From NCBI GenBank assembly GCA_000091205.1, contig AP006497.2: a stretch of DNA of 64,000 nt, one strand, 5' to 3'. This document shows, piece after piece, positions 1 to 63,343 of the stretch. The translations under genes were made by a program, and so were the position numbers. Positions within the stretch are counted from its first letter, which is position 1. Each line of letters opens with the position of its first letter. This DNA is from Cyanidioschyzon merolae. Taxonomy: Eukaryota. The notes under the pieces were generated by a model. The model saw nothing but the letters and a program-made list of their open reading frames with translations. It had not been told where the DNA came from and ran no database searches.

Positions 1-1135
1 CATACCAGCGTCGGGGATGTTTGAGCGCTCCTGCCGTAGCGCTTGTGGGTGGAAAAGTGTCGCTCGCCATGCGCGCTGCAACGACGTGTGCACCACGCAG
101 GCCGAGGTCCTCGGCGAGCACCACTTTCACGGGAATGCGCCGCAAGATCGTGCTCACACGTCCTTTTTCCCGGAAACGCTTCAGAAAATCCGACTTGCCT
201 TCCTGGAGCCATTCGAGGTTTTTAGGAGCTATTCCGCCCGCAATATAGAGACCACTAAACGGTAGGTATTTGAGCGCTGCGTTCCCGCACTCGGTACCGT
301 AGATATCCATCATCATACGCATCGCCTGCGCGCAAAGGCCACACTCGTACACGTAGCGAGCGATGGTTGCAGCGCCATCATTCGATTCTAGGATGGATTT
401 ATCGATACTTGGTTGCACTTTTTCGGGGTACTTTTCCCGCAGGAATTCATAAATGTTGACGAGTCCTCGTCCGCTGACGACGCGTTCCACAGAGACCCTA
501 TGGCCGCTGTCACCGAACTTGTTTCGCAAGTACTGCAGAAGCTCCAACTCTAGTTCCGTTATTGGCGCAAAATCTACATGACCTCCCTCGGTCGCGTGTG
601 CCTCATAGTGCCACACGGTGGATCCCTGACCCGACACATCCGGCTGGGCGCACGCAGTGAGGTAGCACTCCCCGAGACCAGTGCCGGCTCCGACACAAGC
701 TTTTGGCTCACCAGCACTCGGCTCGCCACGCTGCAAGACATAACACTCGTCTGGCTCCCTCAACGTGAGCAGTCCGTACCCGTTCGAAACAAAATCGTTC
801 AAGAAACGGACGCGATCAATATGGAACGCGTCTCGCAACTCATTCGCATCCAGAATCCACTGCTGTCGGTTCGTGAACGAGACCCGGTCGGCGACGACAG
901 GTCCCGCTACCGCAAGGCACATAGCAGCGATATAGAAGGAGGCATCGTTGAGGTGTGCACGCGCTTCCTGCACGAAAGTGTCCAGTACATCGTGGAAGCG
1001 GGAAAACTGCTCGTTCCTATACGATGTTCTGTGGACGCACGGCTGAGCGCAGACATCATCCGAGTCTGTCGCATCGAATATCGCTAGGCGAGCATTCGTG
1101 CCCCCTATATCACCTGTCACAATTAACTTGCGCAT
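1..1135 (-). CDS. glk: Bacterial-type glucokinase (Glk family). The start codon is inside the window and the ORF runs off the left edge, so the C-terminus lies beyond the window.
   Basis: Minus-strand translation from the ATG at 1135..1133 reads MRKLIVTGDIGGTNARLAIF ... GAGTGLGECYL ... EGGHVDFAPITELELELLQYL ... VVSGRGLVNIYEFL ... LYIAGGIAPKNLEWL ... LGLRGAHV. These match the E. coli Glk ATP-binding N-terminus (VGDVGGTNARLAL), the GGHVDFAP block, the SGPGLVNLY block and the C-terminal GGIVPRFLEFF block. There is no stop before coordinate 1. It is absent from the ORF track because it has no in-window stop. Confidence 0.8.
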   Translation of the reverse strand, partial: MRKLIVTGDIGGTNARLAIFDATDSDDVCAQPCVHRTSYRNEQFSRFHDVLDTFVQEARAHLNDASFYIAAMCLAVAGPVVADRVSFTNRQQWILDANELRDAFHIDRVRFLNDFVSNGYGLLTLREPDECYVLQRGEPSAGEPKACVGAGTGLGECYLTACAQPDVSGQGSTVWHYEAHATEGGHVDFAPITELELELLQYLRNKFGDSGHRVSVERVVSGRGLVNIYEFLREKYPEKVQPSIDKSILESNDGAATIARYVYECGLCAQAMRMMMDIYGTECGNAALKYLPFSGLYIAGGIAPKNLEWLQEGKSDFLKRFREKGRVSTILRRIPVKVVLAEDLGLRGAHVVAARMASDTFPPTSATAGALKHPRRWY

Positions 1136-1289
1136 TCCTAAAGCATGAGCCGGTAGGTTTGCAGGCACGAGCGCTCTTGCCGCAGCCGCAAAGCGATAGC
1201 GGTATTCGCAATCGCGTACAAGGTTCGTGTGGTGACGCCAGACCGGCGTCGCTTGTCGTTGCCGCACATCCCTGCTGCAACGACAAGTC

Positions 1290-1720
1290 CGTACAATGAC
1301 GCAGATATTTTGGTTTGAAAGAATGTTTATATGGACTATGGATATCCAGATTGCGGGGCGGGTATTGGCTTCTGGGCAAGCGTCCATTAAACTGGACCCT
1401 ACCTCCAAGTTCCATAACTTGTACTTTCTTTCGGATGCACTGATCGGTTCGAACGTTCTATCAGACGCCGAGTACCCGCATTGAGCTCCTGTCTTTGCGC
1501 TTCTACCGTTGGAGTCGATGCATCCCGAAGACAGAGCGACTTTACCATACCACTGAAGGGCGTCGGCTCGAGATGTCGTGTACCCGACGCCAGGTCGTAT
1601 CTCGTTGTATGTTCGTGCTTGGAGAGACTGTGCAACAGGCCTGCTTTCGCGGCCTTTCGCGTTAGCGCAACCTAGCTCATACAAAGAATTCTGAATACCG
1701 AGTCACCGACTCGCAGTATT
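1290..1720 (-). mobile_element. 5'-truncated copy of a non-LTR retrotransposon 3' end (copy C1, diverged subfamily).
   Basis: The reverse complement of 1296-1700 aligns by eye with the 3' end of the LINE at 38.9-39.3 kb and with copies at 34.1-34.5, 49.5-49.9 and 55.0-55.45 kb. Shared blocks include cgag(t/c)cgacgccc..cagtggtatgg, gaacgt(a/t)cgaaacgacc..atccga.a..aagta..gt.atggaacttggaggtag, and a terminal gtcaatgtaaacgtttt-like tail. Short track ORFs with the shared PTSKFHxLYFLSD / MELGG peptides are translation artefacts of this repeat. Confidence 0.55.
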
Positions 1721-3741
1721 GTGTCGAATACGTCGTCGGTTCGTGTAGCGGGCCTGTGCTCGGCAAACACCGGTAATGAGTGCACGAATCGACGAACCCG
1801 CGCGCTCATCTGGTTTGCCGGACCCCCGTCCTGATATGTAGAAGGAGAGTTTCGTATCCACTAGTGAGTGATGTCGTTCGTATAAAGCGATGTCAGGTGC
1901 CAGGGCTGCACGCGATGTGAACGAGCGCCCTTATCAACTACATGTACATGTAGAGGATGCAGTCACGCACGGAGATCGCTTCGTTCCTGCTGCCAGCTTG
2001 GACAGCGTAAGCATAAACCTGTCAGAATGACGGCAGTTGCGTTCCAGCAGCAGGTTCACTGTGGTCCCCAGTGAATATCTAGTGTTTCGACACGGTATAG
2101 AGCCGAGGCTAACCACATCCCACGGATCCGCTCTTTGGTGCACGAATGAGTCCCTCTGGTACGAGCCGCGGACTTGAGCCTGCAGGCATGCTCACAAATT
2201 TTGAGACATTCATGTCATTCCACTTTCTTCTCAATGCTCGTATCAGCATAGAATTCTCGTCATATACGAGACCCCGGATACTGTAATCTTTATTTCGCAT
2301 TAGGGCGTTTGTGTTCCGGGATGAAACTGAAGGTTTGTTGTCTCTGCGCTATGATTTGCATTTTCTGTCGCGCGATGAAACGGTGCAAGTCGTTGACTTC
2401 TTCTGACTCTGGTCTTCGACAGCTCCGGAATGTTGCGGCACTCGTTGTCGTGATTGTTCCATGTGGTGCCTCATCTGGGAGCGTCTTCCCGGCATCCTCC
2501 ACGCTCTCAGTGCAGCACGCTGTCGATCGGAGAAGTATATGACCTTCTTTCAGTTTCGTTCGTTTCTTCATTGGTGATGGCCCTCGTCGTTATCACTTTC
2601 AAGTTCGTATGTCGACTTGCGCAACGAGTACACGCTTTCGACGTCCGGCATTCGCAGATGTCCACCACACGCACATGCAGTATTTCTGTAAACTTCTGTG
2701 TGGTCGCTTTCTATGCGCTGCATTTACGACGGGATATCGGACGCATGGCTACTGCACCCCAGTTTACGAACCAGATGACCGTCTTTTCGCCACTCGGCAT
2801 CAGAGGAGAATGCAGATCGCCTAGATTGCATTCTGGTCAAACGAGTGACGCAGAGCACCTCAGCTGCTGGTCTCCAGAACGAGCTCTGTGTTTCAGTTAT
2901 TCAGGGAGAACGCTCAAATTCGCTCGCATATGAGTATTGTCGCCTGAAATCGTCTTTTCGCAAATGGTGAGACGAGCAGTACCATCCTCTGTCTGTTGCC
3001 TCTCTTTTTGTGTTTTCTTCGCGCTGTAAACGAACCTCGCCTGGTGGTCCTCTCTTCTGCTGCTGGAATGACGCGTCTCTGACTCCGGACTAGAGTCTGA
3101 AAAGGTAAATTCGACGTCTGAAAAACCCGGGTCCACGCGTACGAATCTTTGGTTATCTTCCAGAATGCGGAAGACTTTCGTTGTCTCCGTTCTCGCCTAG
3201 AGATATTCGGCGATGCTCGAGGTTGAACCCTGACATCGTACCCGTGCGAGAGAAAACGGAAACAGAATTGACTGTCTATGGCTTCAGCAGCTTTGATATT
3301 GGAGTTTTTCTGGTAAACCTTCCTGTTCGTTGACTTACTCCATTTCATTTCGTTCTTTTCCTACTCATGATTTCATGGTGAGGTGGAGTTCCCATGACAC
3401 CCGAGAAACTGAAAGAAACGTAACCAATTGTGAAGCCAAGCATCCTCGGGCGGGAGAGCGAACGTCTTGGACGGCGTGTACCTCTTCTGCCTTATGAATC
3501 CCGTTCTCGCCAGGTATTCGCAGTGTTGACACCCTCTTCCAACGATTTCGTAGTACAGAGAAAATGCGAAACGTGTCGGAGACGAATGCTTCAGTCAGAG
3601 AGAATCCTTCGAGGGAATTCGTCTCCTCAAGTCTGCCGCGAGCTCGACAGCCAATTTCATCTTCGGTTTTCATTGGCGATCACTTCCGGTGAAATAGGAC
3701 GTCGAACTTTCGAACGATCCGGCGGGTGCCGCACAGACAAG

Positions 3742-34089: not shown

Positions 34090-34505
34090 CGTCCATGTTG
34101 TATGGTGAGGTACATGCGCTCACCGTGCCTCACCACGGAGCTTGCATCCCGCCGTCTACGCGGCACCCTGGTATCGAGCGCGCAGTCAAGGATCCCAGAA
34201 TGATCATGTATCCTGATTCCGTGTCGGGATGGAGCATTCCTTCATTCGACGCTCTCAGTGGTATGGCAAAGCCGCTCTGTCTCCGTGCAGCCTCGGTAAC
34301 AGTAATTCAGGCGCCAATGCGGGCGCTCAAAGCAGGCACCTGTCACACGACAGAACATACGAAACGACCAATACATCCGAGAACAAACAATGGAACTTGG
34401 AGGTAAGATGCAGCATGATGGACACTTCTTCGATTACCATTACCCATCCGGCAATATGGGATTCATGGTCAATGTAAACGTTTTGTCATCGAAAAAATCA
34501 GTGTA
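34090..34505 (+). mobile_element. 5'-truncated non-LTR retrotransposon 3'-end copy (C2, diverged subfamily).
   Basis: It aligns with the LINE 3' end and with copies C1, C3 and C4 (see C1 evidence). It ends with gtcaatgtaaacgttttgtcatcgaaaaaat. Confidence 0.55.
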
Positions 34506-35699: not shown

Positions 35700-38600
35700 A
35701 GTACCGCAGCGCTATTCCTATTCCCTTATGCGCTACGACTCGATAGGTTTCGCATCATGGAATATTTGTGGGATAACCTCGAAACTATACGACGAGATAT
35801 CGAATTACCAGTACAGTAATGAAGAACTGATACACGTCGAGGACTGTACAAAAGGAAAAGAGATCCAACGGGATACGGAGAAGGAGACACAGAAACCTCA
35901 TGATCCACCTAGATGCAAAATAACCAGAGAAAGCAGCTCAGGAAAGAGCCCGAAGAAGAAGAAGACCAGCAAGAAAAAAACAGAAGAATAGAAAAAAGAA
36001 CTCCCAAACGAGCCCATCACAAGTTATCCCCTGAAAGGGCACCCCAGCGGGAACTCAAGAAAGCCGTCGCCGAACCCAGGCACCTGCTCACAGCGCTGAA
36101 GATCCGAAATGCCGTGCATGCAAATCTTTAGACCAATTGGCACGCGAGTTTGTAGATGGGAATCAGAAGACTGCCAGAGAACTGGGACTGCTTGCACCAG
36201 AACACAACAGTTGCAAACCTCAGTACCTCAAACGACGTACCAAAACTCGGATTGATGAATGCCACCGACTCAATAAGATCCTCAACCGCACCGCCATACG
36301 CGCCAACGCCGGAGACAAGGAAGCGAAGGCAGTCCCAACGGCGCTACAGGCACAACATGAGGAAGCTATCAAAAGAAAGAAGAAACGTTCCAGAGAAGAC
36401 AAACGAGGGGATCGAAACCGCAAAATCGCCTCCCTGGCGAAATCTATGCTCGAGAGCACCACCGAAGATGAGACCTGGCGCTACATTCGATCGAGACTGG
36501 ACCCACCAAAAAAGTGCTTGGGGCTCACACCAATCGTTTATAAGAAAGCGCTGAGGACGGAGAGTGCCTCAGTGAATGAGGCCTGGACGGACCACGGCAC
36601 AGAATTACATGAAGACGCAACTGGGCACTGCCGAAACCGAAACTATTGGCACCAATATGCTGCAGAACTACCACGCCTCGACCCGGTACCGGAATGGAAC
36701 GACCCAATCTTCTGGCCTGAATCTGTTCGGGCCCTGTTAAGCTCATGCAACCGCAAAACACCTGGCATTGACGGTATCGCTGCCGAGTGGATGAAACTGG
36801 TGATCCCAAAATACGAGACAACAGGGACACCATCGATACCAGATAAACCTGACACAATCTTAGGCAAACGCCTTCTGGAGCTCATCCAACGCATGTTTGA
36901 AGAAGCCTACATCCCTGATGTATGGAGGGCTGCCGAGGTCGCACCGATCCTCAAAAAGGACTCCCACATACACAGACACGAACAACTACCGGCCTATCGG
37001 CCTCATCCCGTCAATCATGAAGCTACTTTTGCGCCAACCTCACGAACCGGATCCAGAGAGGCCTCGAGGAACGCAAGTTCTTCGCCCCAGGGAGGGCTGG
37101 ATTCCGGAGCCGCGAGGAGTGCATGAGCCATGCCCTGACCCTCACTGAAGTGGCGCAACGTCGCTTTATTCGTGACCGACAACCAACTTACGTATGCTTC
37201 ATTGACTTCCAAAAGGCCTTTGACACGGTCCCGCACGAGGCCCTATTTTTGAAGATGGAACGAGCCGGAGTCTCCGCAAAGTGCTTGGCGTTCTTCCGTG
37301 CGCTCTCTGCAGACTCGTGGATGCGCATCCGACTGGGCGACGGCTGAAGAACCCCTTCCATAAGAATCCGCCGTGGACTGCGGCAGGGCGAGCGCGCATC
37401 CCCGCTCCGTTTTAACATCTTCATCAACGATCTGCTGAACAACTGCAGACAATTCGCGGCTGAGGCGCCGTGGATAGACTGTGGAGATGCTCGGTGAGGA
37501 GCGCCCACATGGGAACTGCCTCGAAGGCCTTCTACTTGCGGACGATGTCGTGCTGTTGGCACCCGCCCTGGAAACGCTTGCGGCTAGCATGGAACAAGTC
37601 AGCGCCTGGGCCGATCGCTGGGAGATGAACGTAGGAGCATCGAAGTGCGGCGTCATGGTCATCCATGGAGACTCGCAGAGCATTCGCAATCGCTCGTGGC
37701 GGTTGCAGAATCAGGAAATTCCGATCGTGGAAAAATATCGCTACCTGGGGGTCGGTCTCACGCCGACGCTCGACGAAAAGGCACACGTCGACGTGGTGAT
37801 CGCCAAGATGCATAGACGTACAGCGATCGCACGCCCAGTCCTATCCGACCCCTCTATCCCCTTAGCAATCCGTACCAGGGCACGAAGGATGTGTATCATC
37901 CAGCCTGCGACCTGGGGTGCTGAATGGTGCGGCATGAAGCACCCAAATGCCTCGCGTCTGCAGACAGCCGCCAACAGGGCAATGAGACTCGTTGTTGTTG
38001 GATGCTCAGTGCAGAGCAGAGCAACCACCCCGCTGGCACTCGGACCTGAACTCCAAATACTCTCAATAGAAGCGATAGCACCAGGTTGCCGGGCACGCAT
38101 ACGGGCCAAAGGGCGCACTATGCGCACCTCTTTGAGTCGGGTTTTCATGCAGACCCCAACGCACCGCAAGAACACTTGGATGAAATCAACGCAGATTTGG
38201 GTGAAGCGCCTCTTAGGAGACAACATGCTCCAATCGTTCCCCAGGAATACAGAATTCTCCCGTCGCCTGAAGCGAACGGTCCAAACAACAGTACGGGAAT
38301 GTAGACATGCAGTCAGTCGCGCCCTTAACGCCGGCTTGACTCTATACCGGAACTACAACCTAGCATACACATGCAAGTACTGGTGGGAGGCGCTGGAGTT
38401 CCCGGGACTTGCTCGAGGTACCCAGTGGCTCGCGAAAATCCGCGTTGGTGGCTTCTGGCTACCAGCACGGGCTCTAAGCCGTATGGGAACACTGGAATCG
38501 CACTGGGAATCACACTGTCCCTGCTGTGGGGATGAGACCCCCAAGACGCTGACATATTTAGGCTTACAGTGCCCGCGCTGGATGCAGGAGCGCAACGAGC

Positions 38601-39300
38601 TCCTTGAAGGACAGCAGCAGCTGGGCATCATCGTGATAGCCGAAGGCCGGACACTCACTCTGAGTGTAGCACTGGCAACTGATGGTCCGCTAACGGAGCC
38701 TCAGCGCTCATTAATGGCGAACAAACTCACATGCTACCTTCTAGAAAAAAGGGTCCAGCGAATCGGATGCGAACACGGGTTTAGTGTTCTTTGTGCCTAC
38801 CCACTGGTGGGTGTCAAGCACAAACCCGCATTGCCAACCGACAACAACGCATTCCATGCATGATCACGAAGGAGAGAGGCGGCTCCCAGGATATATCCGA
38901 ACAGCCATGTTTCTCCAGCGTGTCGTGCAGCGAAGGCAAGCCTGCATCCGCAGACTGTCCAAGCACAAACTGACGTCGAGTTCCGATTCTACGTCGGGTG
39001 AAACACGCCTCGAGCCGACGCCCGCTGTGGTACGGTAACGCCGTTCTAGCTCGATGAACTATCTGCTCTAGCGTTCAAGCGCAAAGGCGAATATCGAACG
39101 GCAGGTACGAGGCACACACGATAGGACGTATGAAACGACCGGAATATCCGAGAAGAAGTATAGGTAATGGAACTTGGAAGTAGGCTGTTTGATGGATACT
39201 TCACCGCGCATTGGAAAACACAAAAAAAGTAAGAAAAGAAAAATGCGCATAATCGGAGAACGCTGGCCAAAGTAAACGTTTCGTCAATGAAAAAAATGCC
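35700..39300 (+). mobile_element. Degenerate LINE-like non-LTR retrotransposon (about 3.6 kb). It has an APE-endonuclease remnant at the 5' end, a frameshifted reverse transcriptase and a 3' tail.
   Basis: SWNICGI at about 35750 resembles the start of the L1-type AP endonuclease domain (SWN.NG). RT motifs lie in four different frames: PGIDGIAAEWMKLV...VWRAAEVAPILKK (motif 0/1), TNNYRPIGLIPSIMKLL (motif 2), FIDFQKAFDTVPHEAL (motif 3) and LLLADDVVLLA (YxDD-type motif 5). The 3' end at 38.9-39.3 kb is shared with five truncated copies elsewhere in the window. The boundaries are approximate. Confidence 0.8.
36137..38863 (+). pseudogene. LINE ORF2 reverse transcriptase region, inactivated by at least three frameshifts.
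   Basis: Track ORFs 36137..37126 (frame 2), 36897..37148 (frame 0), 37123..37347 (frame 1) and 37481..38863 (frame 2) each carry consecutive RT motifs in the canonical order. Confidence 0.8.
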
Positions 39301-39508
39301 GCAGTTGAAGGGAAACGTGATCTTGATATCTAGCATGTAGCTCTAATGTAAACGCTGTATTTTCGTTACCTTCATAGCCAAGTATAGTTTTCAGTTCATT
39401 GGAGTTCCAAACCTCAAACATGTGTATTCAATTGTTTTGTCGCAGTATATAACAGAAGCGTTCAAGGAGCTTTCTTTTTCAAAAAAAAAAAACTAAAAAA
39501 GGAAAGTT

Positions 39509-41660
39509 ATGAAAAAGCAAGTCGACAATCCTGGAGGCCGAGGGTCGTCGGCTGCCAAAAAAAAAACAAAAAACTCTGCCGAGTCCAGAAGAAAAGGAAG
39601 AGAAGAAGGACCGAAAGGAGGAGGCTCTCCGTCGAAGGCGGCAAGAAAGACGAATGTACGACGAGATGGTTGTGAAAGCCGGTTTTCTTAAACATATCAA
39701 GGATCCGTACAGGGAAAACTTGCGTGACGCTTTCGAAAAACGTGTCGACTCGTACTCCAAGAGTACTGTGAAGGCGTCGTCAGGGCTGATGCATTTGGTG
39801 AGCGAGATGTATCGCGACGTGACGCACATGGAAACGGTCGAGATTCGGGGCGAGTCTCTCGACATCGCCTTTATTCGTCACCTGATGCTTGATACAGGTG
39901 AAGCGCGGAGGGAAAATGTGCTAGTGCATGCCCTCCACGAAAAACATCCCTTTGACGGGTTCGAGGGTACTCGGTACAAGGGTGACCGGAATATTTACGA
40001 CTATGGGGCCATGAAGTAACTCACGAATCTGAAGAACCGTTTGACAGTGAACCTCGAACGTTTCATGATACGCGCCGTGTTTGCGCTCTACCCGGGCATC
40101 TCTCGCAAAGGAAAATGGGCGATTATCAATGGCATCACGAACGATCGCAAACATGAAGATGAGGTCGAATTTGTCGACAAGAAGGCGTCAAACGAGAACA
40201 CGAATGCAGCTTCTGTCATCCGTGCGGCTATAAAAGAGCATCGTGCAGTCTCGGGGCTGACGAACCCAACAGAAAAGGTATTAGATTTGAAAAAAGATAA
40301 GGAAAGATACGATCGCCTCGTCCTACGGTATTTCGTGTTTTAGGACCGAGAGCTCGAACGCAAGGCAGAGATGAAGCAGAGCGAGGAAAAAAATGAAGAG
40401 TGGGAGAGACGGAAGGCGTTCCTAATGGGGAAGCGCTTCAACGTCGTTCCAATATGCAACATCAAGTCACATTTCGTGACTGTCGACTCCGGCGTCCTTT
40501 ACGGCATCATGAAGGAGATCGGTCCGGAGTTCAACGTTAGCAGGGAGGAGTTCTCCAATGAAGCCCGTGAGACGTACTGGAAGAGTATCTTCGATTTCAA
40601 ACGTCTCAAAGTAAGCAAACAAAAGGTATTCACTGGGATGATCGAAACCGATGGGATGGCCATGTGTGTACACTATCGGCGGTTGAAGAAAGATCGTCCA
40701 GTCCCGCCCTCGGCAGCGCCCGTGACGAAGGATGAAGAAAAGGAGGAGGCTGGTCCTGCGACTCGGCAGGTAGAGGATAACGACCTTGTCGTTGGCTCGG
40801 TGAAGCATGAGGATGAGAAGGAGGCGGATCCTGCCACACAGAAAGTGCAGGATAACGACATTGTCGTCGGCACAGCCCCCGGAAACACTAATATCATAAC
40901 CATCTCTGTACCAAAGCGTGCGGAAGATGGTACTGATGGTAACTTATGTCAGAAAGACATGCGTCTTTTGAGGTTCTCGAGAGCGAGATACTATAGAGAA
41001 TCCGGTATAATGAATGCGAGGGAGAAAATTGGTACGTGGAATGCAGGAATGAAGGATCACCTGGAAGCTTTGAGCGAGATGACTAGCCGAGGAGCGGACT
41101 TTCAAGCTTTTCGGGAGTTCATGGAAGTTCGCGTTGCTCGTTGGGATGCACTGTGGAAAGAGTATACAAAGCCTCGGTGGGCTCGTCTACGTATGAATCT
41201 ATTCGGTGGGAGGCAGCGAGCGTCCGCGAACTTTTTCAATCAGTTGAGTGCCCTCAAAGAGGACAAGACTCAAAGGCTCGTAGTAGCATATGGAGCAGGG
41301 CGCTGGAAGACCCAAAAAGAAACTATGCCAGCTCCAACGACAAGAACATACAAGGAGTGTGCACGGCGTTTCGTTACGATACCTGTAGATGAGTTCCGAA
41401 CGTCCTAAACACAGCATGAACTGGGTTGTACACTTCAGAGCGTCGAGATGGAAAAGTGCCAGCGGAGTGCTGAGGATATAGCAACGTACGGACCGCTGAC
41501 GGAGGAGCTAATGGAAAGGAGGGCGAAAGTTCGGGGACTACTCGCATTAGTAAGTACAACCAGCGATGGCAAGAAACGTATGGAGTTTGTTCAACGAGAC
41601 TTTAACGCTACCATGAATATTCGAAGAGGTGCGGTGTTGGAGAAAAGACCTCCAGAGTGA
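39509..41660 (+). pseudogene. TnpB/Fanzor-like (RuvC-type) ORF of about 715 aa if read through. It is degenerate, with one frameshift in an A-run and three in-frame stop codons, and it lies about 200 bp downstream of the LINE 3' end.
   Basis: Five same-frame segments (39513-39653, 39654-40019, 40041-40343, 40371-41408, 41448-41660) are separated only by single in-frame stops. The ATG at 39509 is one frame off, next to the A10 run at 39556-39566. Segment ends read ...RRFVTIPVDEFRTS (compare TnpB ...VdP.yTSq before the zinc finger) and ...QRDFNATMNIRRGAV (compare TnpB RuvC-III DADvNAAiNI.rrG). A candidate RuvC-I reads [15 protein letters not shown] (compare Fanzor GIDPGvrNlaT, with the catalytic Asp replaced by Ala). 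The Zn-finger cysteines are mostly absent. The N-terminus is Lys/Glu-rich low complexity. There is an internal 24-aa tandem repeat ([15 protein letters not shown] / [15 protein letters not shown]). Confidence 0.45.
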
Positions 41661-41831
41661 ACAAGAAAGAACTTTATTGGACAACATCTCAAAGTCGATT
41701 TATATGAGAAGAAGTTGGAACCAGCAGTGGGTGGCCGGTCCAAAAAGACGGGGAGGCGTGTTTGCACTTCAGTTGGAGACGCTTTTGCTAGGGCACGTTC
41801 ACCACCACTCCTGTACACCGGTGGCGATGGC

Positions 41832-42698
41832 ATGCAGCCTAGGAGACGGTATCGAGGCCACGCAACCATAAACGAGGAACGACATCGTGCAGCACAGTTC
41901 GCCACTGCTGCTTCTGGGTATGTCGAAGAGAGGGAGGCGGCGCTTCGTGAGCAGTGCGTCGTTTTCCAGGGAAAGTTGCAGGCGTTTGCGAGAGAGCACC
42001 GACGGGAGATAGAGTCTGATGGCGCGCTTCGGACTCGTTTTCTGGAACTCTGTATGAACCTTGGTGTTGAGCCGTTTTTGTCTCGCCGCTCAGTATGGTC
42101 GCAACTGCTGGGACTCAGTGAGTGGTACGCCCGACTCGGGTTTCTGGTCGCGCAGATCGCTTTGGCGACACGGGACTGGAACGGTGGTGTCATTCGTCTG
42201 ACGGTTCTCCGAAGGGCGCTCCAGCGACGTCTGGACGTAGACTGTGGCACTCAGGAACCCAGTGAGAAACGCGCACGCATCGTATCCAACGACGATATCG
42301 CACGCGCAGTTCGAACCCTGGAGCGATTGAGGGCAGGGTTTCGGATCATCAGTATTGATGAAGGTAAAAAGGAGTGTTGCCTTGTCTCGGGAGCGGCTGG
42401 CGAGATCAGTTTTACAGAAGACGAGAAAGCCGTGTTGCAGCGTGCACGAGCAACAGGCGGTTCGATTTGTCGACAAGACCTGCCATGGGAGAATATTCGA
42501 TGGGGGCGATCCATAGAGCGTCTGCTCCAGCTGGGCATTCTGTGGGTCGATGACGGCGCAAGTGATGGCCAGCGACGATACTGGGCCCTCGGGCTGATCC
42601 CAGAATCCATCGAGGATCAGAATCCAGTTTCCGAGTCGGGCCCCAGCGATCGATACGAAGGTCGCCCCATAACCTCAGTGGCGTCTAAGCTCCCGTGA
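41832..42698 (+). CDS. SNF8: ESCRT-II subunit VPS22/SNF8 (EAP30), 288 aa from the ATG at 41832. The track ORF starts at 41715.
   Basis: ATG verified at 41832. ...QGKLQAFAREHRREIESDGALRTRFLELCMNLGVEPF...ALATRDWNGGVIRLTVL...DDIARAVRTLERLRAGFRIISI...RYWALGLI is collinear with human SNF8 (LEEFASKHKQEIRKNPEFRVQFQDMCATIGVDPL...LKHRNGGLITLEEL...DDLIRAIKKLKALGTGFGIIPV...HYWLPAL). Confidence 0.85.
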   Translation: MQPRRRYRGHATINEERHRAAQFATAASGYVEEREAALREQCVVFQGKLQAFAREHRREIESDGALRTRFLELCMNLGVEPFLSRRSVWSQLLGLSEWYARLGFLVAQIALATRDWNGGVIRLTVLRRALQRRLDVDCGTQEPSEKRARIVSNDDIARAVRTLERLRAGFRIISIDEGKKECCLVSGAAGEISFTEDEKAVLQRARATGGSICRQDLPWENIRWGRSIERLLQLGILWVDDGASDGQRRYWALGLIPESIEDQNPVSESGPSDRYEGRPITSVASKLP

Positions 42699-45600: not shown

Positions 45601-47952
45601 TGCAGCTGTTTGCGATAGCGGATTAACGAGGTTCGATGATCGTCGGCATCGTTCCTCGAGGACTTGTTCAACGGTTCGCGTCAAAATGCCACTGAACCCT
45701 GTAATGTCAAATGACAGGTTCCGTTTGGAAAACAAAGCCTTCTCTCTTTCTGGCCATCTCCGAGATGCCATTCGACATCAGCATGGTATCTACCTTGGAA
45801 AATGCTCGCAGAGGCGCCCGTCTCTTCTGTTTATATGGAACAGAGTCTTGCACTCGGCCTTGATTCGTCTTGGCGATCGCTGGCAGAGGAGCGGGCGTCA
45901 CAAGTTTGCACGAAGACAGCGTCGAAAGATCGAGATTTCTCGATATCACCTCTGGGCCAGATATCCCTTCCTTCACCTGTCCCTTGACGTGTACCGCCAC
46001 GTTCCTGAAACCCTTTATCGACTGGAACAGCGTTCGTTTGCTTGTACAGCGGACTGTGTACACGTCGAGCGGATCATCAAGAAGAAACCCTTAATGGTAT
46101 CGTTCAGCACCGGGCGTGGGAGCGGAGAAGAGAATCGGTGCGAGCCTTCTGTACCCGTCAAGGGCATCTGCCGAGCGATAATGAGAGCGTTCACGCGCCA
46201 AAGAGCAAGCCCCTGAGGAGAATGTGTTGTTGTTGGCATGTGGAAAGACCTGACCACAGGCATCTATAATCGCCTCGATGGGCGTCCTGCGGCTGTATAC
46301 AACGAAGATGAAAACATGGCAAGCGAAGCGTAGGTCGTAACCCCCCTCTGTTCATGACATGCATCGGCAGTAGCCGGAAGCAGCGTACTCGGGGCTTTGA
46401 CGCAACCATCAGCAACCTTCGGCTGCTCCCGATGGAGCTGGGGCGAAACGAGACACCAGCATATTCAAAGCTGTACATTCGGAAAAAGAAGCAGTCGCAG
46501 AAAAACCCCGTAAAGGTTGGCGTTCATGAAACTGGGAACAAACCCAGCCTTTAGAATGTACGTGCGAGTTAGAGGAACCGTCCAATTGTTATGCTCCTAA
46601 ATCTATAGATACGAAGAGTGTCTCCTCATTTTCGCATTGTGATTGAACAAAGTGAACGCTAGTGTAGACGGACAGGTCAGCTGCTCTCTTTCGGTTCGCA
46701 GCTGGTTCCGTATTCTCACCAGCCTGACGTTCATTTGCTGTATGAACTTGTTTGCTCCCAGAGTAGCGTTTATGTATCGGTACCAGCTATTCGTATCTGC
46801 TTTCGAGCGGGTGTTTCAGCAGGTCAACTGCGAGGGTGTGCGGATCCCGCTGCAGCTAACGGGTTTCCGCACTGCACTTGAGCCGTCGCAAACTTGCCAA
46901 TAAACCGTCAGCCGCTGGTTCGAATGCTTCCGGACTCCAGCAGGTAGCCCTCTGTTCGCGCGCGTCCTGCACTGCATTCGCTGGTATCATATGCGGCGGG
47001 CGTACCAGGGACGTTTTGGACAGAGAATGACGGCTTGAGCGGAAACGAACCCCCGACGACGGGCCCGAGCGTGCACAGTCGTGGAATGTTGGATCGCGAT
47101 ACCTCGACGATCGCTCTTTGGCAGGGTTGCGAGACTTTCCTCGCCGCTTTGTACTGTCGAGACAACAGCTGGATACTCGGTCACAACCCTGGACTTGAAT
47201 GCTGCATTCGTCAGGACAACGACAATGCAGCCAGCGTGCGCATGAGGCACCGAGAAGCCACAAATCGCTCCGAAAGTACCGACATACACGGAACTCGCCG
47301 ACTCGGTGCAGTACCGCGAAAAAGGCCCTCGCTTCGGTGCACCATCATGTGAATGCGTTCACGACGAGAACATAAGTACAAGACCCAGTACCAAAAGAAC
47401 TTGGTGCCTACACTGAAAGCTCGTTATCGAAGTCGCAAAATCAGCGCCTCAAGCTCTCACTTGGATGAATGTCCGAATGAACTGGGCATTTGCCTCCATC
47501 CTGGACGCGTCTCTATCGGTTCAACGTGAGAGCATATGCATACGCTCACTGGGCCGCGCTCCTTCAACGACGGCAACAAGACCTGGTCAATGAGTACTCG
47601 TGCCTGTGCAGCCCTGATTCCACACGAGACCACAATCGTCCATTTTCGGGCTCTTCACCCAGGACAAGGTATCTTCAAGACGCCATGCACAGAGAGGGCA
47701 AGCGCAGCGACGCAGCGTGCATCCATCTGGAGAAAGAAAATGGAATGCTCGCCTGTACCGGCATCAGCTGCATCCACCGAGAATGCCCTCGCCACTCAAC
47801 CGAACGATCGAGCTGTGGTACGCCATTGCGAGCCTTCAACAGAGACTCGGATCGTTGCTTACGGCATCGCACACGATTTCATCGCGAGCCAGTACTCCTT
47901 GTGACTCTGGCTCGACATGCAGCGTTCAGCTGCTCTGCTGTGCGGATGTTAG

Positions 47953-48912: not shown

Positions 48913-49489
48913 AAGCGCTCTGAGAAATCCAAGACCAGACAAGGTCAGAGGACAGCTCCCAGTGCGGCTTCTTTCACGCGACAAGAGGCCTGAGCGGAAA
49001 ACCTTGGATAGAGCCCTGCAATCGCACCGGCGCCGCTGCAAGGCGTCTACGCGACGTCAAACAGACAGTGCGCGAGCTCGCACCTGTAGCTTAACTTGAG
49101 CACGTCACGCTTGATGAGTGCGTAACCAGCTGGGTCAACTGCCCCGGCTCTGCTGGTACCGCAACACGAACGCGTAACGAACGAATGAATAAATGCAGGA
49201 AATGAAAATGTGCGCATTGCGCGCCACTAGGCAGCGCCAGGCGTACCAAGCGCGTACTGTAAAGAAAAAAAGAACAGAAACGAAACAGTAACTAGCAACG
49301 AGATAACATTTTCTTTCCCGTCTAGGACAAGCCTTAAAAGGGAGAAGAGGTTTCCGGGTTATCGAACGTTTCCTTCCTAGACGGAAGGCCCGCGATCCGG
49401 ACGAGTGTGCTGGGCTCGTGCTTCATGCTCTCTCCGGTTGCGGGCGCTGTAGTGAGATCTGAGCAGCTCCTCCGCAACGCAGTTTATTC

Positions 49490-49905
49490 TAGGAGCGGAC
49501 TACTGCATGTGGGCGTCGCGCTGGTCGCAATGGACTCCCAGTCCATCGCTCCCTGCCACCGCAGGCAACAGGTCTGTCTGCGCATTTCGCAGGATCCCAA
49601 CATGTTATTGAACCCCGATTCTGTGTCGGGTGAAGCATTCCGTGATTCGGCGCCCTCAGCGGTATGAAAAAGCCCTCCAGTCGCCGTGATGCACCTGTTC
49701 CAGCGGTGTAGGCGATATGGCTGGAGCTCAAAGCAGGCTCAGTGAACGATAGAACGTACTGAACGACCAGTACATCCGAAAGAAAGTACAAGTAATGGAA
49801 CGTGGAGAGAGGGTGCAACATGGTAGTCGTTTTACCGATCATCAAATTCCATACCGCATCCCGGAACATACGTGGTCAATGGAAATCTTTTGTCATCGGA
49901 AAGAG
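49490..49905 (+). mobile_element. 5'-truncated non-LTR retrotransposon 3'-end copy (C3, diverged subfamily). It sits immediately 5' of a second truncated copy, giving a nested or tandem insertion.
   Basis: It aligns with C1, C2, C4 and the LINE 3' end. Its tail (...gtggtcaatggaaatcttttgtcatcggaaagagaa) abuts the 5' end of fragment B at about 49905. Confidence 0.55.
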
Positions 49906-54984: not shown

Positions 54985-55450
54985 GTGCGTTGTTTTTTTT
55001 GATGACAAAACGTTTACATTGACCATGGATCCCAGATTGCAGGATGGATATTGGTAATCGAAAAAGTATCCATCATGCTGCTGTACCCTACCTCCAAGTT
55101 CCATCACCCATACTTCCTCTCGGATATACTGGTCGTTTCGTACGTTCTAACGTGCACCGAGTACCTGCCATGCCGTACCCGCCGTAGAGCCTATACTGCT
55201 GGTCCGGATTCAGCAAGGGAACGGAACGGCGTTGCCATACCACTGAGGGCGTCGACTCGAGGCATGGTTCATCCGACAGGGAGTTGGGATTCATTATCAT
55301 ACTGGGAGCCAGCAAGCTGCGCAGACAGACGTACTGCCTGCGACAGCGCGAAGCGATATCCTAGGAGTCCTCTGGGACCAGCGCGACGCCCAGAAGCAGC
55401 CCATCAGCACCTTGTGTCAGAATGAACTGCGTTGCGGACGAGTTGTTCAG
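54985..55450 (-). mobile_element. 5'-truncated non-LTR retrotransposon 3'-end copy (C4, diverged subfamily).
   Basis: The reverse complement aligns with C1-C3 and the LINE 3' end. The tail ...atggtcaatgtaaacgttttgtcatcaaaaaaaac ends at about 54990. Confidence 0.55.
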
Positions 55451-56984
55451 ATCTCACCATACCACCTGCCACTGGGGGAAGCATGAAACGCAAGCCCGGC
55501 AGACTTGTCCGGCTCGCGGGACCTTCCGCCTAAAAGGTAAACTTTCGACAATATGGAGACCTTTCCGCCTTGGCAGGCTTCGATGGCGTCGAGGCGGTCG
55601 ACTGAGCACATCCCCAAATCCTATAGTACGGCATCTGGCTCGGAAACGATGCACAACATTGAACCGGAGCATACTGTATATGTCAAGGGCATCTGTCGAG
55701 CGACGAAGCGAGCGTTCACGCGCCGACGAGCGAATCTCCGTGGCAAGCGAGATACTGTCGACATACGGGAGAACGCCTGACAAGCAGCAATTCTCACCGC
55801 TGCGGAAGGAGCATCGAGTTTGTGTGCAAGGAGGACGAAAATGGCGTGCAAAATTTAGACCATAACTTTCGTCTGAGCATGAGATGCATCCACAACAGCC
55901 TCAAGAGGCGTTATCGACACCTTAACGCTGATATGAACTTGCTTCACCTAGTTACAATGGATCAGGAGGAAAAACAGAGATCCGCGTATTTCAAGCGGGA
56001 GATTAGATAGACATATCAGACACATTCGCAGAAAAAGCCAGTAAATTCTAGAGCTGACGATACCGGGAGCAGACCCCAATGTTGGCCTGTGCGCCCGAAT
56101 CAGCAAAGTGGATCCAAGCTGTTTCATGCTGAAATGAGTGCGTACGCGTGTCCCGCTTCGTACGAATAGAAAAGTGCGGATACGCCAGTGACACCCGCCA
56201 TCGCTGCGGTTGGGCTCTCCACAGGTCTCTGCAGAGCATCTCACATCGCCTGCCGTTCTATGTTCCTACAGGACGCACAATACTTGAAGCATTACCCAAC
56301 CACAGGCAGAAGCGGGTGCATGTGCCTGCACTGCGCCTCGAATTCACACACACACAGACAGACATTTGTGGAACGTTGGCCACGGTGGGTCAGCCGTGCC
56401 TCATCGCATATGTGGCCTGCGAGACGACACCGGCTCAGGCAGCTCAGGCCCGTTTTTCTTACTGCAAGGCATTTGCGGCGTTGCAGCAGTTATCTGAAGC
56501 AGGCGTGCTATCCAGACGAACCGTTTTCTTGGGCGGAGCTGAACGAATATACCCGATATGAAGAGTAAAATGAGCTGACTGGTGTACAGCGAGATCCAGC
56601 GAGCTCCGGTAGTCTCCTCTTTGGTAGCCAACGGTAATCGCGTTTCCGAGCGACTCTGGTTCGAAGCATCGGTCATACACTCCATGAAAAATACCCCTGG
56701 GTGTTTATCATGAGCCTCTGCGCCCGCTTGACACTAGTGCATCGCTATACCAATCATAACCGATATGATAAGTGAACATAGCAAACGTGCACCATATGCT
56801 GCAAGGATAACCGTGCCCGTGTCCCTGGTCCATACTGCATAACGCGATGTATTTCGGAACCGCCTGATGATGATCATGCAGCCACGAACCGGAACGGCCT
56901 TCGTCTTCTCGACATCGCCTCGTGTCAAGGCATGCACGAACCTTGAGCGCGTCCGAGGCCATGGACAGGCTAGACAGCGCCCTT

Positions 56985-61070: not shown

Positions 61071-63343
61071 GAATGTTCATTATTTGCATGCTTTTGTCGA
61101 TGCAGCATTCGGGAACGACACGACGGAGCGATCTCGCTGAAACCCGAACTCGAATAAGCGACGTGACACGTTCAGTGAGACCTTCGGCAGGGGCTTTTTT
61201 CAACAACTCGCCAGGGAACGACGTCGATTAATTCGCGTCCTCAGTCTAGTGGCGCATATTGCTGGGTCCACGAGTTTCCTGAAAACGTAAAGATCGAAAA
61301 CTTGAAGAATATGTTATTGAAGCATGCGGTATGTATGGAGAAGAGAGACGTGGAGGCTAGTACTTGCTAGCAGGAAGATATCGATTACTTTATGAATCAG
61401 TGGTACACTGCATCGCGAATCATTTCCAAGCCACTTACGTCAAGAATCGCACCGGCAAACTTTCGAAGGAGTCGCTCTGAAACGACGACAGAGAATCCGA
61501 AAACTTCGTACGAGGAGTCCCTGAGCTCTGATACCTGCACTCCGTGCCTCCAGGCCGTGAATCTACAGTGCATTCGGGAACGTAATCGAGAGGCAGGAAC
61601 AAGGCAGCCTGTTCAGTGTACCAGGTTCATTGAGCACGAGTCCTTCGAAGGTGACCGCTGCCCAGCTCCCGTCAAGGCGCTGGGTCAACCAGCACGCAGT
61701 CAGCCCTATTTGCTTCCACATCCATAGCGCCAGGTGTCGCACAGTGGCATATCATATCAAACGGACATGAACTGCGTTTCAAGAGGAAAAAACCCTGCCG
61801 AGATGCCAGACGTGGAGACGCAGGCTCGCATCCCGGATCTCGACTACGAAACAAATTCTAGTCGGCAAGTTTCAGGGCTCTGGTGCTGTTTGACAAAGTG
61901 CATCCGCGCTGACAGACTATCTGAGGGTAAAGCGCAAAGCGTCTTAGTCTAGACGAGACAACCGTTGGTAGTGCAAACACGACATAGTTGTTGCCGGAAA
62001 AGCAAAGCTCCGCGAAAGCACTCGCGTCCCTGGCAACATTGCGATCGACGTTTCGCGAGCTGTCGCGTTCGATGAACAAACGAAAGTTGCGTCGTTCGCG
62101 AACGTCAAGTCCTCAGTGGAAACTGCGTTACTCGACCAGAACGAAAGTTTTTATAGGTAAAAGAGCAAGACTGAACCTTCTATGGGGTTTTACCCTTTTC
62201 ACTGGACCTGGCGGACCCGCTCTGGTGGTCAGGTGCGACTCTTTGGCGTGCTTGTGACGCTTCCACTTCTCGGTGGGAGCTGGTGGTGGTCGCAAAGCGC
62301 GTCCTTCCACGAACGATCCACAAATGTTGTACCTAACGACCGATTTCAGCGTGAAAAAGATGGAGGCAGTAACTCACGGGAGCTACCGCCTCCACAGTGA
62401 CGGTTGTAAGAGTTCTGGGAGTTGCCACGCCTTACTGCAAACGAGGTCGACCTGGTCGCTGCTCACCGGGAGGTTGTCTCGGGCCCAGCTCCGCCCGAGC
62501 TTTTTCCGCCAAGAGTCGCTCTGACTCGAGCAGTGCGTCGGCTTTGTCTCTGAGCAAACGAACAAACCGTGGAGCGTTGACGATCATAAGCACCAGAGCC
62601 ATGAGTATAATGTGCGCGTACGGGGCCGGTACTTTGGAAAAGTACCAGCCCAAAGCGCGCGCCATGTACTCCCCTATCACTGGACGACTCGAAATGGACT
62701 CCATGTTGCTCAAGGCTTGGCAAGTGTGGAGCTTGTCTTGAAGTGCAGGTGAGGTTTCGCTTCCACAGTGCCAGCTTCCGTTACCTTCCCAGGAACCTGT
62801 GCCGTTGACGCCACTGCCGCTGCCGCCGTCGATTGATAACAACCGCTTGCGGGAGCGCTGACGGAGACACAGTAGCCTTTGTAACAACCACTACTTGCAG
62901 TGATGCTTGCCTTTGTACGAACTGGTGCGGTAGACGCCTCTACAGCTGCTCGTAGCGAACAAAGGCACCTGAAAGCGCAAGCGTATAATCGTTAGCGTCG
63001 CGGCGTCATGACGCACAGCGGCAGCAAGTCTCCAACGACACGCCCTGTTGACTTTGGACGACAGGCATCGTTTCTTCAGCGTGTACGTTTGGGACCTACG
63101 CATTCGCGTACTTTTGCCTTTGTAAAGTAGAGTTTGAGTTGTTGGACCAGTTTTTTGGTGGAAGCCTCGGAATAGTTGGACAGCGTGTCTCGAACGATCT
63201 CGTGACATTGTGATCAACGTCGAGCGCTCTCCACGACCGCGTTTGTGCTGGTTGTCGCCTCGCACAACCGCCTCGAACTGTGCGATGCTCGGTACGCAAC
63301 AAGTTCAACAATCACGGCAGACCTGGGAACTAGACGCAGCATC

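Follow-up and report, generated by a model that had tools for sequence, protein, structure and literature searches.

A decayed reading frame upstream of VPS22 in Cyanidioschyzon merolae and the Fanzor1 element CMe-1A

What is the origin of the broken reading frame that lies between the tail of a retrotransposon and the gene VPS22 in a stretch of 64,000 nucleotides of the Cyanidioschyzon merolae genome (contig AP006497.2 of assembly GCA_000091205.1; the whole stretch is referred to as the window), and could it still specify an RNA-guided nuclease? A preliminary description, made from the letters alone, had assembled a protein from five same-frame segments between positions 39509 and 41660, likened its C-terminal part to TnpB and Fanzor nucleases, and offered two readings, a decaying Fanzor copy or a domesticated derivative. 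We conclude with high confidence that window positions 39297-41826 are a dead, end-trimmed copy of CMe-1A, a Fanzor1 element of C. merolae with a single open reading frame (ORF). The family is not new; CMe-1A was catalogued in 2013, and the present copy is an inactive relic of it.

Identity of the copy and of its family

CMe-1A is the one Fanzor1 family listed in C. merolae, whose copies, about 150 in number, each share about 80% identity with the consensus (Bao & Jurka 2013, Mobile DNA 4:12; PMC3627910). The same source lists it without an associated transposase and without terminal inverted repeats, gives its target-site duplications as undetermined, and equates its 5' 635 bp with the repeat TE-N2_CMe; some copies are still intact, and supplementary file 1 provides a 3169-bp consensus and a CMe-1 protein of 734 aa encoded by a single exon, entered as "734 (1)" (PMC3627910). 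Alignment by blastn places consensus positions 703-2196 on window positions 39300-40800 with 84.0% DNA identity, and consensus positions 2120-3145 on 40799-41826 with 88.9%, both near the usual identity within the family, and the CMe-1 protein matches the window copy by tblastn with 77% identity across residues 18-729. Consensus positions 1 to about 700, which include the TE-N2_CMe module, are absent and a retrotransposon tail is joined in their place, so that the window copy is a 5'-truncated member of CMe-1A. An intact paralogue, P0001 (752 aa), gives a single co-linear tblastn match to the window (71% identity over 752 aa, E=0), and the string of ORFs is therefore not a chance assembly. The string proposed in the preliminary description is thus real, although the ATG at 39509, with which it was made to begin, opens a different frame from the main one. 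Paralogue comparisons here and below used metagenome loci, 24 full-length copies of which supplied a majority consensus; in the majority of related loci long enough to cover these points, homology to the window begins at 39295-39310 and stops at 41812-41827, and the loci extend beyond them on both sides.

Sixty-five relatives were recovered from a collection of 5.8 billion proteins, most of them 55-80% identical and from Joint Genome Institute (JGI) metagenomes. A family profile built from nine diverse homologues collected 4,924 cluster representatives at E<=1e-3, 631 of them at E<=1e-30, and when compared with the sequences in the PDB it matched one molecule, the Fanzor1 of Parasitella parasitica (9cf0), with E=4.6e-13 in two stretches, pairing DPGR with DPGR, DEFRTS with DEFRTS and NRD with NRD. 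The TnpB/Fanzor-like C-terminal blocks read from the letters are accordingly present, and together with the 77% identity to CMe-1 this match establishes homology to recognised Fanzor1 proteins. Seven PDB matches to an AlphaFold model of P0001 reach E<=1e-3, all of them Fanzor1 structures (SpuFz, GtFz and PpFz), with E from 4e-14 to 2e-9, probability 1.00 and a target TM-score of up to 0.64, and everything else lies at E>=0.3; the Fanzor/TnpB fold is thereby recognised in this paralogue rather than in the broken window copy.

A number of observations weigh against the Fanzor1 assignment or fail to add to it. Local Pfam-A searches found no significant family in the read-through protein or in seven relatives, the only Pfam trace in P0001 being Cas12f1-like_TNB at E=0.23, and single-sequence phmmer against the PDB returned only a chance match to angiogenin (E=0.38). 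The P0001 model is of moderate quality (predicted local distance difference test, pLDDT, 63; predicted template-modelling score, pTM, 0.52). The C4 zinc finger of the 2013 Fanzor motif definition is absent from the CMe-1 clade. At the 3' end, where the preliminary description had suggested looking for a conserved structured RNA, no omegaRNA could be shown: for 39 aligned 3' ends RNAalifold arrived at -0.42 kcal/mol without a consensus structure, covariation in the terminal hairpin described below was not significant (80.7% paired cells against 80.2% in shuffles), the minimum-free-energy structure of the 3' domain of locus L001 showed no excess of pairing over shuffles when laid on the alignment, and Rfam had no match over 38000-42500 at E<=1. 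The RNAalifold blank is likely to have arisen because indels misaligned the hairpin arms.

As both the Pfam-A and the single-sequence PDB searches were blank, the Fanzor1 homology is visible only by profile or by fold; the profile check proposed in the preliminary description succeeded with a PDB Fanzor1 and drew no significant match from Pfam-A. The blank searches, and the fact that the relatives' only label is DUF8286, are what could be said for an unrelated family of transposon proteins that carries RuvC-like motifs by chance. This alternative is refuted by a PDB profile match that covers all three motifs, by significant fold matches that are all Fanzor1, and by the alignment to CMe-1, which Fanzor's own definers list as Fanzor1 (PMC3627910); we give it practically no weight. 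The precomputed Pfam label DUF8286, for which a literature search found no paper, corresponds to Fanzor1.

The zinc finger calls for separate consideration, as its missing cysteines had been taken as a sign of decay. They are indeed missing, but the 2013 definition (PMC3627910), which places a C4 finger between the [TS][TS] and RD motifs, is satisfied by none of the relatives: two CxxC motifs in this interval occur in 0 of the 137 scanned, one in 14 and none in 123, and the published CMe-1 protein has no CxxC there either. The 14 relatives with one CxxC are the more distant ones, the first standing at rank 24 of the hit list and the others below about rank 100. Loss of the zinc ribbon is thus a feature of a large and otherwise conserved clade and not decay of the window copy. 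Since the family is defined by descent, as judged from sequence and fold, and its definers list CMe-1, we keep the clade in Fanzor1, where on sequence and modelled fold it is filed as a putative zinc-finger-degenerate subclade. In the best approximately 100 cluster representatives (among P0109-P0258) a segment RGLLWC.ST replaces the CxxC...CxxC zinc ribbon, and more distant members of the clade keep CxxC and C.ST.C; the catalytic D/E/D is invariant throughout.

Lesions, catalytic residues and decay

From 39507 to 41800 a single frame specifies a continuous Fanzor-like protein that is interrupted by single stop codons, and the N-terminal segment is displaced from it by a +1 frameshift: DNA alignment shows one extra base relative to the paralogues in the A10 run at 39557-39566, where the majority consensus of 24 full-length relatives reads MKKQVDDPGGPGSPAARKKQKTVPSPEEKEE in one uninterrupted frame. 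At the three internal stops (40017, 40341 and 41406) both the paralogues and the published consensus have amino-acid codons, for Tyr, Leu and Tyr respectively, so the stops are specific to the window copy. The preliminary description had reported these three stops and the frameshift, and both hold; its comparison with intact paralogues, left as a suggestion, could also be made, and marks the stops, the frameshift and an Asp to Ala change at the active site as private to this copy.

The end of the ORF had been set at 41660, and this did not hold. Codon 41658 is TGA in the window and a Leu codon in the published 10D consensus, which rules it out as the native end; the published 734-aa protein passes it and runs 46 codons further, to an ancestral stop at about 41789-91. 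The metagenome majority consensus, unlike the published 10D consensus, has a stop at this codon. Following ...KRPPE, the codon is hypervariable among copies (TTG, TGG, TCG, TAG, TGA and CGA), and many copies stop here, yet the frame downstream stays protein-like.

The segments between stops could be taken as exons of a functional gene whose stops fall inside short introns, a reading for which nothing speaks beyond the presence of the ORF segments. Relative to the paralogues the interruptions are substitutions of single codons with no inserted sequence, the frameshift sits in a homopolymer run, and the published family is single-exon, "734 (1)" (PMC3627910), all of which makes functional introns hardly credible. 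The preliminary description had also dismissed ordinary introns, on the ground that gaps of 22-40 nt were too short; these gaps are a product of listing ORFs that start with ATG, and each true interruption is one codon long.

One length difference from the published protein concerns an acidic linker just upstream of RuvC-I, in which the window copy has a 25-aa insertion relative to CMe-1 by tblastn and the published consensus has one repeat unit. Tandem Repeats Finder reported 4.0 copies of 75 bp in the intact paralogue L001 (11146-11449) and no repeat in the window copy. Conservation along the alignment falls across 40706-40855 and is elsewhere flat, at about 0.8-0.85. An open frame of more than 700 codons is retained in only one (L001) of the 24 full-length metagenome copies.

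The catalytic residues show the same mixture of family conservation and private loss. In the nine-sequence alignment, whose members are about 32-43% identical to P0001, three positions are invariant, namely Asp in DPG, Glu in EFR(T/S)(T/S) and Asp in RD.N. The window copy retains EFRTS and RDFNA, including the [TS][TS] motif and the C-terminal RD, and the Glu of its DEFRTS (in VTIPVDEFRTS) aligns with DEFRTS of PpFz1, which identifies it as the rearranged RuvC-II glutamate. Fanzors have lost the canonical RuvC-II glutamate, have an inert residue in its place, and use an alternative Glu about 45 residues downstream (PMC10530073); in the present family the canonical position would fall at VVAYGAG, about 37 residues upstream of the DEFRTS Glu. 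At RuvC-I the consensus GADPG (GADPGNTNII) has become GTAPG, so that the Asp that is invariant in the family (D484) is Ala here, as the preliminary description had proposed. In the characterised ApmFNuc the RuvC-I substitution D324A abolishes cleavage (PMC10530073), and by analogy the Ala would inactivate the window enzyme even without the stops. With its RuvC-I Asp missing, the window copy fails as an enzyme and not as a homologue of Fanzor1.

The window copy is dead, with a frameshift, four premature stops, an Asp to Ala change at RuvC-I, and both element ends missing. Its ancestor, to judge from characterised Fanzors, would have encoded a TnpB-like nuclease of about 734 aa with a RuvC site formed by Asp (GADPG), the rearranged Glu (DEFRTS) and Asp (RDFNAA). 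This nuclease would bind an RNA copied from the 3' end of the element that encodes it, and would cut DNA matching the sequence beside the element's right end, an RNA-guided mechanism that for CMe-1 is modelled on those same enzymes. In the window copy this scheme would fail at several points, namely the broken ORF, the RuvC-I Ala, and the loss of about 700 nt of the 5' consensus and of the last approximately 24-40 nt, including half of a terminal hairpin; as the ORF is broken, RNA-guided DNA cleavage by this copy is excluded.

Substitutions in the window copy relative to the consensus are distributed over codon positions 1/2/3 as 48/36/96 (p=5e-8), and those in the other 24 copies together as 1381/1134/2222. 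The excess at third positions, which are about twice as frequently substituted, indicates that the lineage was protein-coding for most of its history; much of the divergence arose in coding lineages, as Bao & Jurka suspected, and the stops and the frameshift came later.

This bias bears on the second of the two readings offered at the outset, a nuclease-dead Fanzor derivative domesticated by the host, for example as an RNA-guided DNA-binding factor. Domestication would account for the replacement of the RuvC-I Asp by Ala beside two intact catalytic residues, for the third-position bias, and for a relic found at the same locus in several strains. The bias, however, is the same in all paralogues and reflects divergence of active master copies before insertion, and four in-frame stops and a frameshift cut the ORF into pieces. 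Both element ends are lost, the proposed guide-RNA end included, the ORFs called in related strains begin only downstream of the third stop, and the orthologous relic there carries the same copy-specific substitutions. We therefore regard domestication as very improbable and retain the decaying Fanzor copy. The copy is fixed between a degenerate retrotransposon and VPS22, had already become a relic in the ancestor of several Cyanidioschyzon strains, and is presumably decaying neutrally.

Element ends, neighbouring sequences and mobilisation

The features of the locus are collected in Table 1.

Table 1. Coordinates of the CMe-1A relic, its lesions and motifs, and its neighbours in the window.
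Feature	Position	Strand	Remarks
Degenerate non-LTR retrotransposon (LINE) with frameshifts, outside the Fanzor element	36035..39296	+	A7 run 39290-39296
Relic copy of CMe-1A	39297..41826	+	about 700-3145 of the published 3169-bp consensus; both ends trimmed
Non-coding leader of the element	39297..39508	+	about 57 nt preceding it in other copies missing here
Start codon and basic N-terminal segment (MKKQVDNPGG...), up to and including the A10 run	39509..39566	+	+1 frameshift in the A10 run (39557-39566)
Premature stop TAA	40017..40019	+	paralogues and consensus: Tyr (GAMKYLTNLKN)
Premature stop TAG	40341..40343	+	paralogues and consensus: Leu (RYFVFLDRELE)
Acidic 25-aa (75-bp) repeat linker, just upstream of RuvC-I	40721..40870	+	two units in the window
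RuvC-I catalytic position, GCC (Ala) in place of GAC (Asp)	40875..40877	+	compared with consensus VVGADPGNTNII
Glu of DEFRTS, alternative rearranged RuvC-II glutamate, kept	41391..41393	+	E656 invariant in family
Premature stop TAA directly after DEFRTS	41406..41408	+	paralogues and consensus: Tyr
RuvC-III Asp of RDFNA(T/A), in RDFNATMNIRRG, kept	41598..41600	+	D725 invariant in family
Premature stop TGA	41658..41660	+	published consensus TTG (Leu); orthologous relics in related strains Arg
Former C-terminal coding tail and start of the 3' end	41661..41826	+	ends at the 5' arm of the terminal hairpin (CACCGGTGGCG)
Host gene VPS22/EAP30 (ESCRT-II), BAM81628.1	41832..42698	+	Pfam EAP30 E=4.1e-28

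The left neighbour is a retrotransposon without long terminal repeats (non-LTR), that is, a long interspersed nuclear element (LINE): its stitched reverse-transcriptase segments score 46.7 bits against Pfam RVT_1 (cut-off 29.6; E=4e-12), and it has an A-rich 3' tail. Its motifs PGIDGI, DFQKAFDTVPH and LADDVVLL are scattered over three frames within 36035-38860, and independent tail copies, with unrelated flanks, stop at this A-run as well (A7-8). In other copies of the Fanzor element ...ATCGCGCTCGGTGAGCGCACCTGGGAGATCGGGCAGTCAACTGACACGACGCGCA stands directly upstream of TGCCGCCGTTGAAGGG, and the approximately 57 additional 5' nt of related loci read ...ATCGCGCTCGGTGAGCGC...GACGCGCA; in the window the A7 run of the LINE is joined straight to TGCCGCAGTTGAAGG. 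The spacing of about 200 bp between LINE and ORF that had been reported is correct for the ORF start, which is 213 bp from the tail, but the trimmed element itself abuts the tail at 39296/39297.

On the right the last 24 bp of the CMe-1A consensus are missing. Full-length copies continue for about 35-40 nt further 3' and complete a terminal hairpin of about 16-19 bp with several G.U pairs, for example CACCGTTGGCGTCGTTCGA-CTT-TCGAACGGCGTTGATGGTG; in the window copy the loop and the 3' arm are gone. A covariance model of the hairpin (R1) found it in about 30 copies and not at the site of the window copy. The 3' 229 nt of L001 fold better than shuffles (z=-2.65), and the corresponding value for the window copy is z=+0.89. 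This G.U-rich hairpin is a candidate for the 3' stem of an omegaRNA, and we claim no omegaRNA. The hairpin was seen at the right ends of L001, L004, L012, L028, L038, L044, L071 and others, often followed by short GGT/GGTG-like repeats; copies whose arms differ in sequence still pair, and in L001 both arms are shortened by matching deletions of 3 nt.

The gene downstream encodes a 288-aa product identical to BAM81628.1, one of three window proteins (the others being BAM81618 and BAM81620) that agree exactly with GenBank entries of C. merolae strain 10D. The relic ends 5 bp before its ATG, and the frame of the relic continues into VPS22. Codon 41658, TGA here, encodes Arg in related metagenome strains, so that gene prediction there yields a "VPS22" of 416 aa (P0095, P0097) or 361 aa (P0108) whose N-terminus is a piece of the Fanzor C-terminus; these Fanzor-VPS22 fusions are probably an annotation artefact. 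Upstream of VPS22, the N-termini of P0095 and P0097 contain the private substitutions of the window copy (FVQRDFNATMNIRRG), and as these are common to the strains, the relic there is orthologous and older than the divergence of the strains.

This arrangement raises the possibility that the 3' part of the relic has been co-opted as promoter and 5' untranslated region (UTR) of VPS22, which would add to the reading as a pseudogene and not replace it. Just 5 bp separate the right end from the annotated ATG, more than 5.7 kb of transposon (Fanzor relic plus LINE) lies directly upstream, so that transcription must start inside it or read through, the terminal hairpin of full-length copies is deleted exactly here, and the arrangement is common to related strains. 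However, one strain (P0107) keeps only about 35 nt of relic before the ATG, followed by unrelated sequence, which would suggest that most of the relic is not required, and we consider co-option unlikely.

How CMe-1A moves is a further question, as neither the window copy nor the published element has a transposase gene: no ORF for a TnpA (Y1 or serine) transposase of the IS200/IS605 type is present in or beside the element, and no remnant of a DDE_3 transposase was found in the window (best E=0.07) or in the 5' modules of relatives. DDE_3 remnants occur only in the Cyanidioschyzon-like loci L056/L058 (4654-5453), near a Fanzor copy, with 33-35% identity and E=2.6e-9. The left and right ends were tried as terminal inverted repeats and rejected, only about 9 nt being similar, in one class of copies.

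CMe-1A could instead spread by a process defined by its 3' end and linked to LINEs rather than by a cut-and-paste transposase, the candidates being LINE read-through with 3' transduction or another one-ended process. Copies have a common, precise right end with the terminal hairpin, and their 5' sides are heterogeneous modules built from sequence related to the LINE tail; the TE-N2_CMe module contains the reverse complement of that tail, and one class of copies has the tail in direct orientation with an identical junction and LINE truncations from 288 bp to more than 3 kb. Against this, a single discrete left end is common to many copies, some of those that look "5'-truncated" are inverted rearrangements, and inspection by eye of composite and truncated copies revealed no convincing target-site duplications and no poly(A) tails. 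We regard LINE-linked spread as improbable.

The 5' modules of the relatives are repeated in their own right: at least three or four precede the Fanzor core, with a constant 3' end, and comprise class A (L013, L015/16, L019, L022, L030), class B (L004, L005, L026/27, L035, L039, L057, L061, L062, L069, L072) and further groups (L046 and L007/8; L048, L014/17 and L038/40). One module of about 775 bp is itself preceded by about 100 nt resembling a Fanzor right end. TE-N2_CMe has at least four copies in the window, at 55001-55571 (+), 49241-49898 (-), 34189-34491 (-) and 1316-1572 (+), and a further match lies at 38993-39184. Between its nucleotides 84-271 and the LINE 3' tail, taken as reverse complement, identity is 77.6%, and TE-N2 may be a LINE-tail-derived element, similar to a short interspersed nuclear element (SINE), that was catalogued in reverse orientation. 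Another repeat family, at window positions 45707-46419 and 61231-61510, is shared with L001 (16591-17653) at 64-66% identity.

Comparison with known systems

By itself the finding matters little, being one dead copy among the approximately 150 of a family catalogued in 2013. It does illustrate that a TnpB/Fanzor RuvC nuclease can be recognised from raw sequence where Pfam-A finds nothing, and it has some modest uses: CMe-1 is placed in a large clade that lacks the C4 zinc ribbon and keeps its catalytic D/E/D under selection, the DUF8286 label is tied to Fanzor1, and the terminal hairpin is put forward as a candidate omegaRNA 3' stem.

The closest comparison is with CMe-1A as published, from the same species, with which the window copy shares a single ORF, the lack of terminal inverted repeats and a divergence typical of the family; it differs from the consensus in having one extra 25-aa repeat unit, and in having the LINE tail, in direct orientation, in place of the TE-N2 module.

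Bacterial TnpB (IS200/IS605, IS607) resembles CMe-1A as a member of the RuvC-type RNA-guided nuclease superfamily, in which a guide RNA would be expected at the 3' end of the element. CMe-1A differs from it in having no TnpA, a eukaryotic host, a large helical N-terminal half and a rearranged RuvC-II glutamate, and its protein goes undetected by the Pfam OrfB models.

The nearest relatives outside Cyanidioschyzon, represented by P0056 (contigs L073-L076), are Fanzor1 proteins 39% identical over 99% of the query, with a similar protein length and the same zinc-finger-less C-terminal region as CMe-1. They are carried by elements of about 3.6 kb in which a gene for a DDE_3 (Tc1/mariner-type) transposase lies directly upstream of the Fanzor gene in all four contigs and the gene pair is flanked by a weak inverted repeat of 30 nt, whereas CMe-1A has neither a transposase gene nor terminal inverted repeats. 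These elements match the Mariner-borne Fanzor1 elements of the 2013 paper (PMC3627910).

Among Fanzors of known structure, SpuFz1 (8gkh), GtFz1 (9cer) and PpFz1 (9cf0) are only 12-14% identical to the CMe-1 family, represented by P0001, in structural alignments, and PpFz1 has a CxxC...CxxC zinc ribbon (DEFRTSSFCPKC...) where the CMe-1 family has the cysteine-poor RGLLWC.ST segment. With all three, however, the CMe-1 family shares the rearranged RuvC-II glutamate and the order DPG...DEFRTS...NRD.

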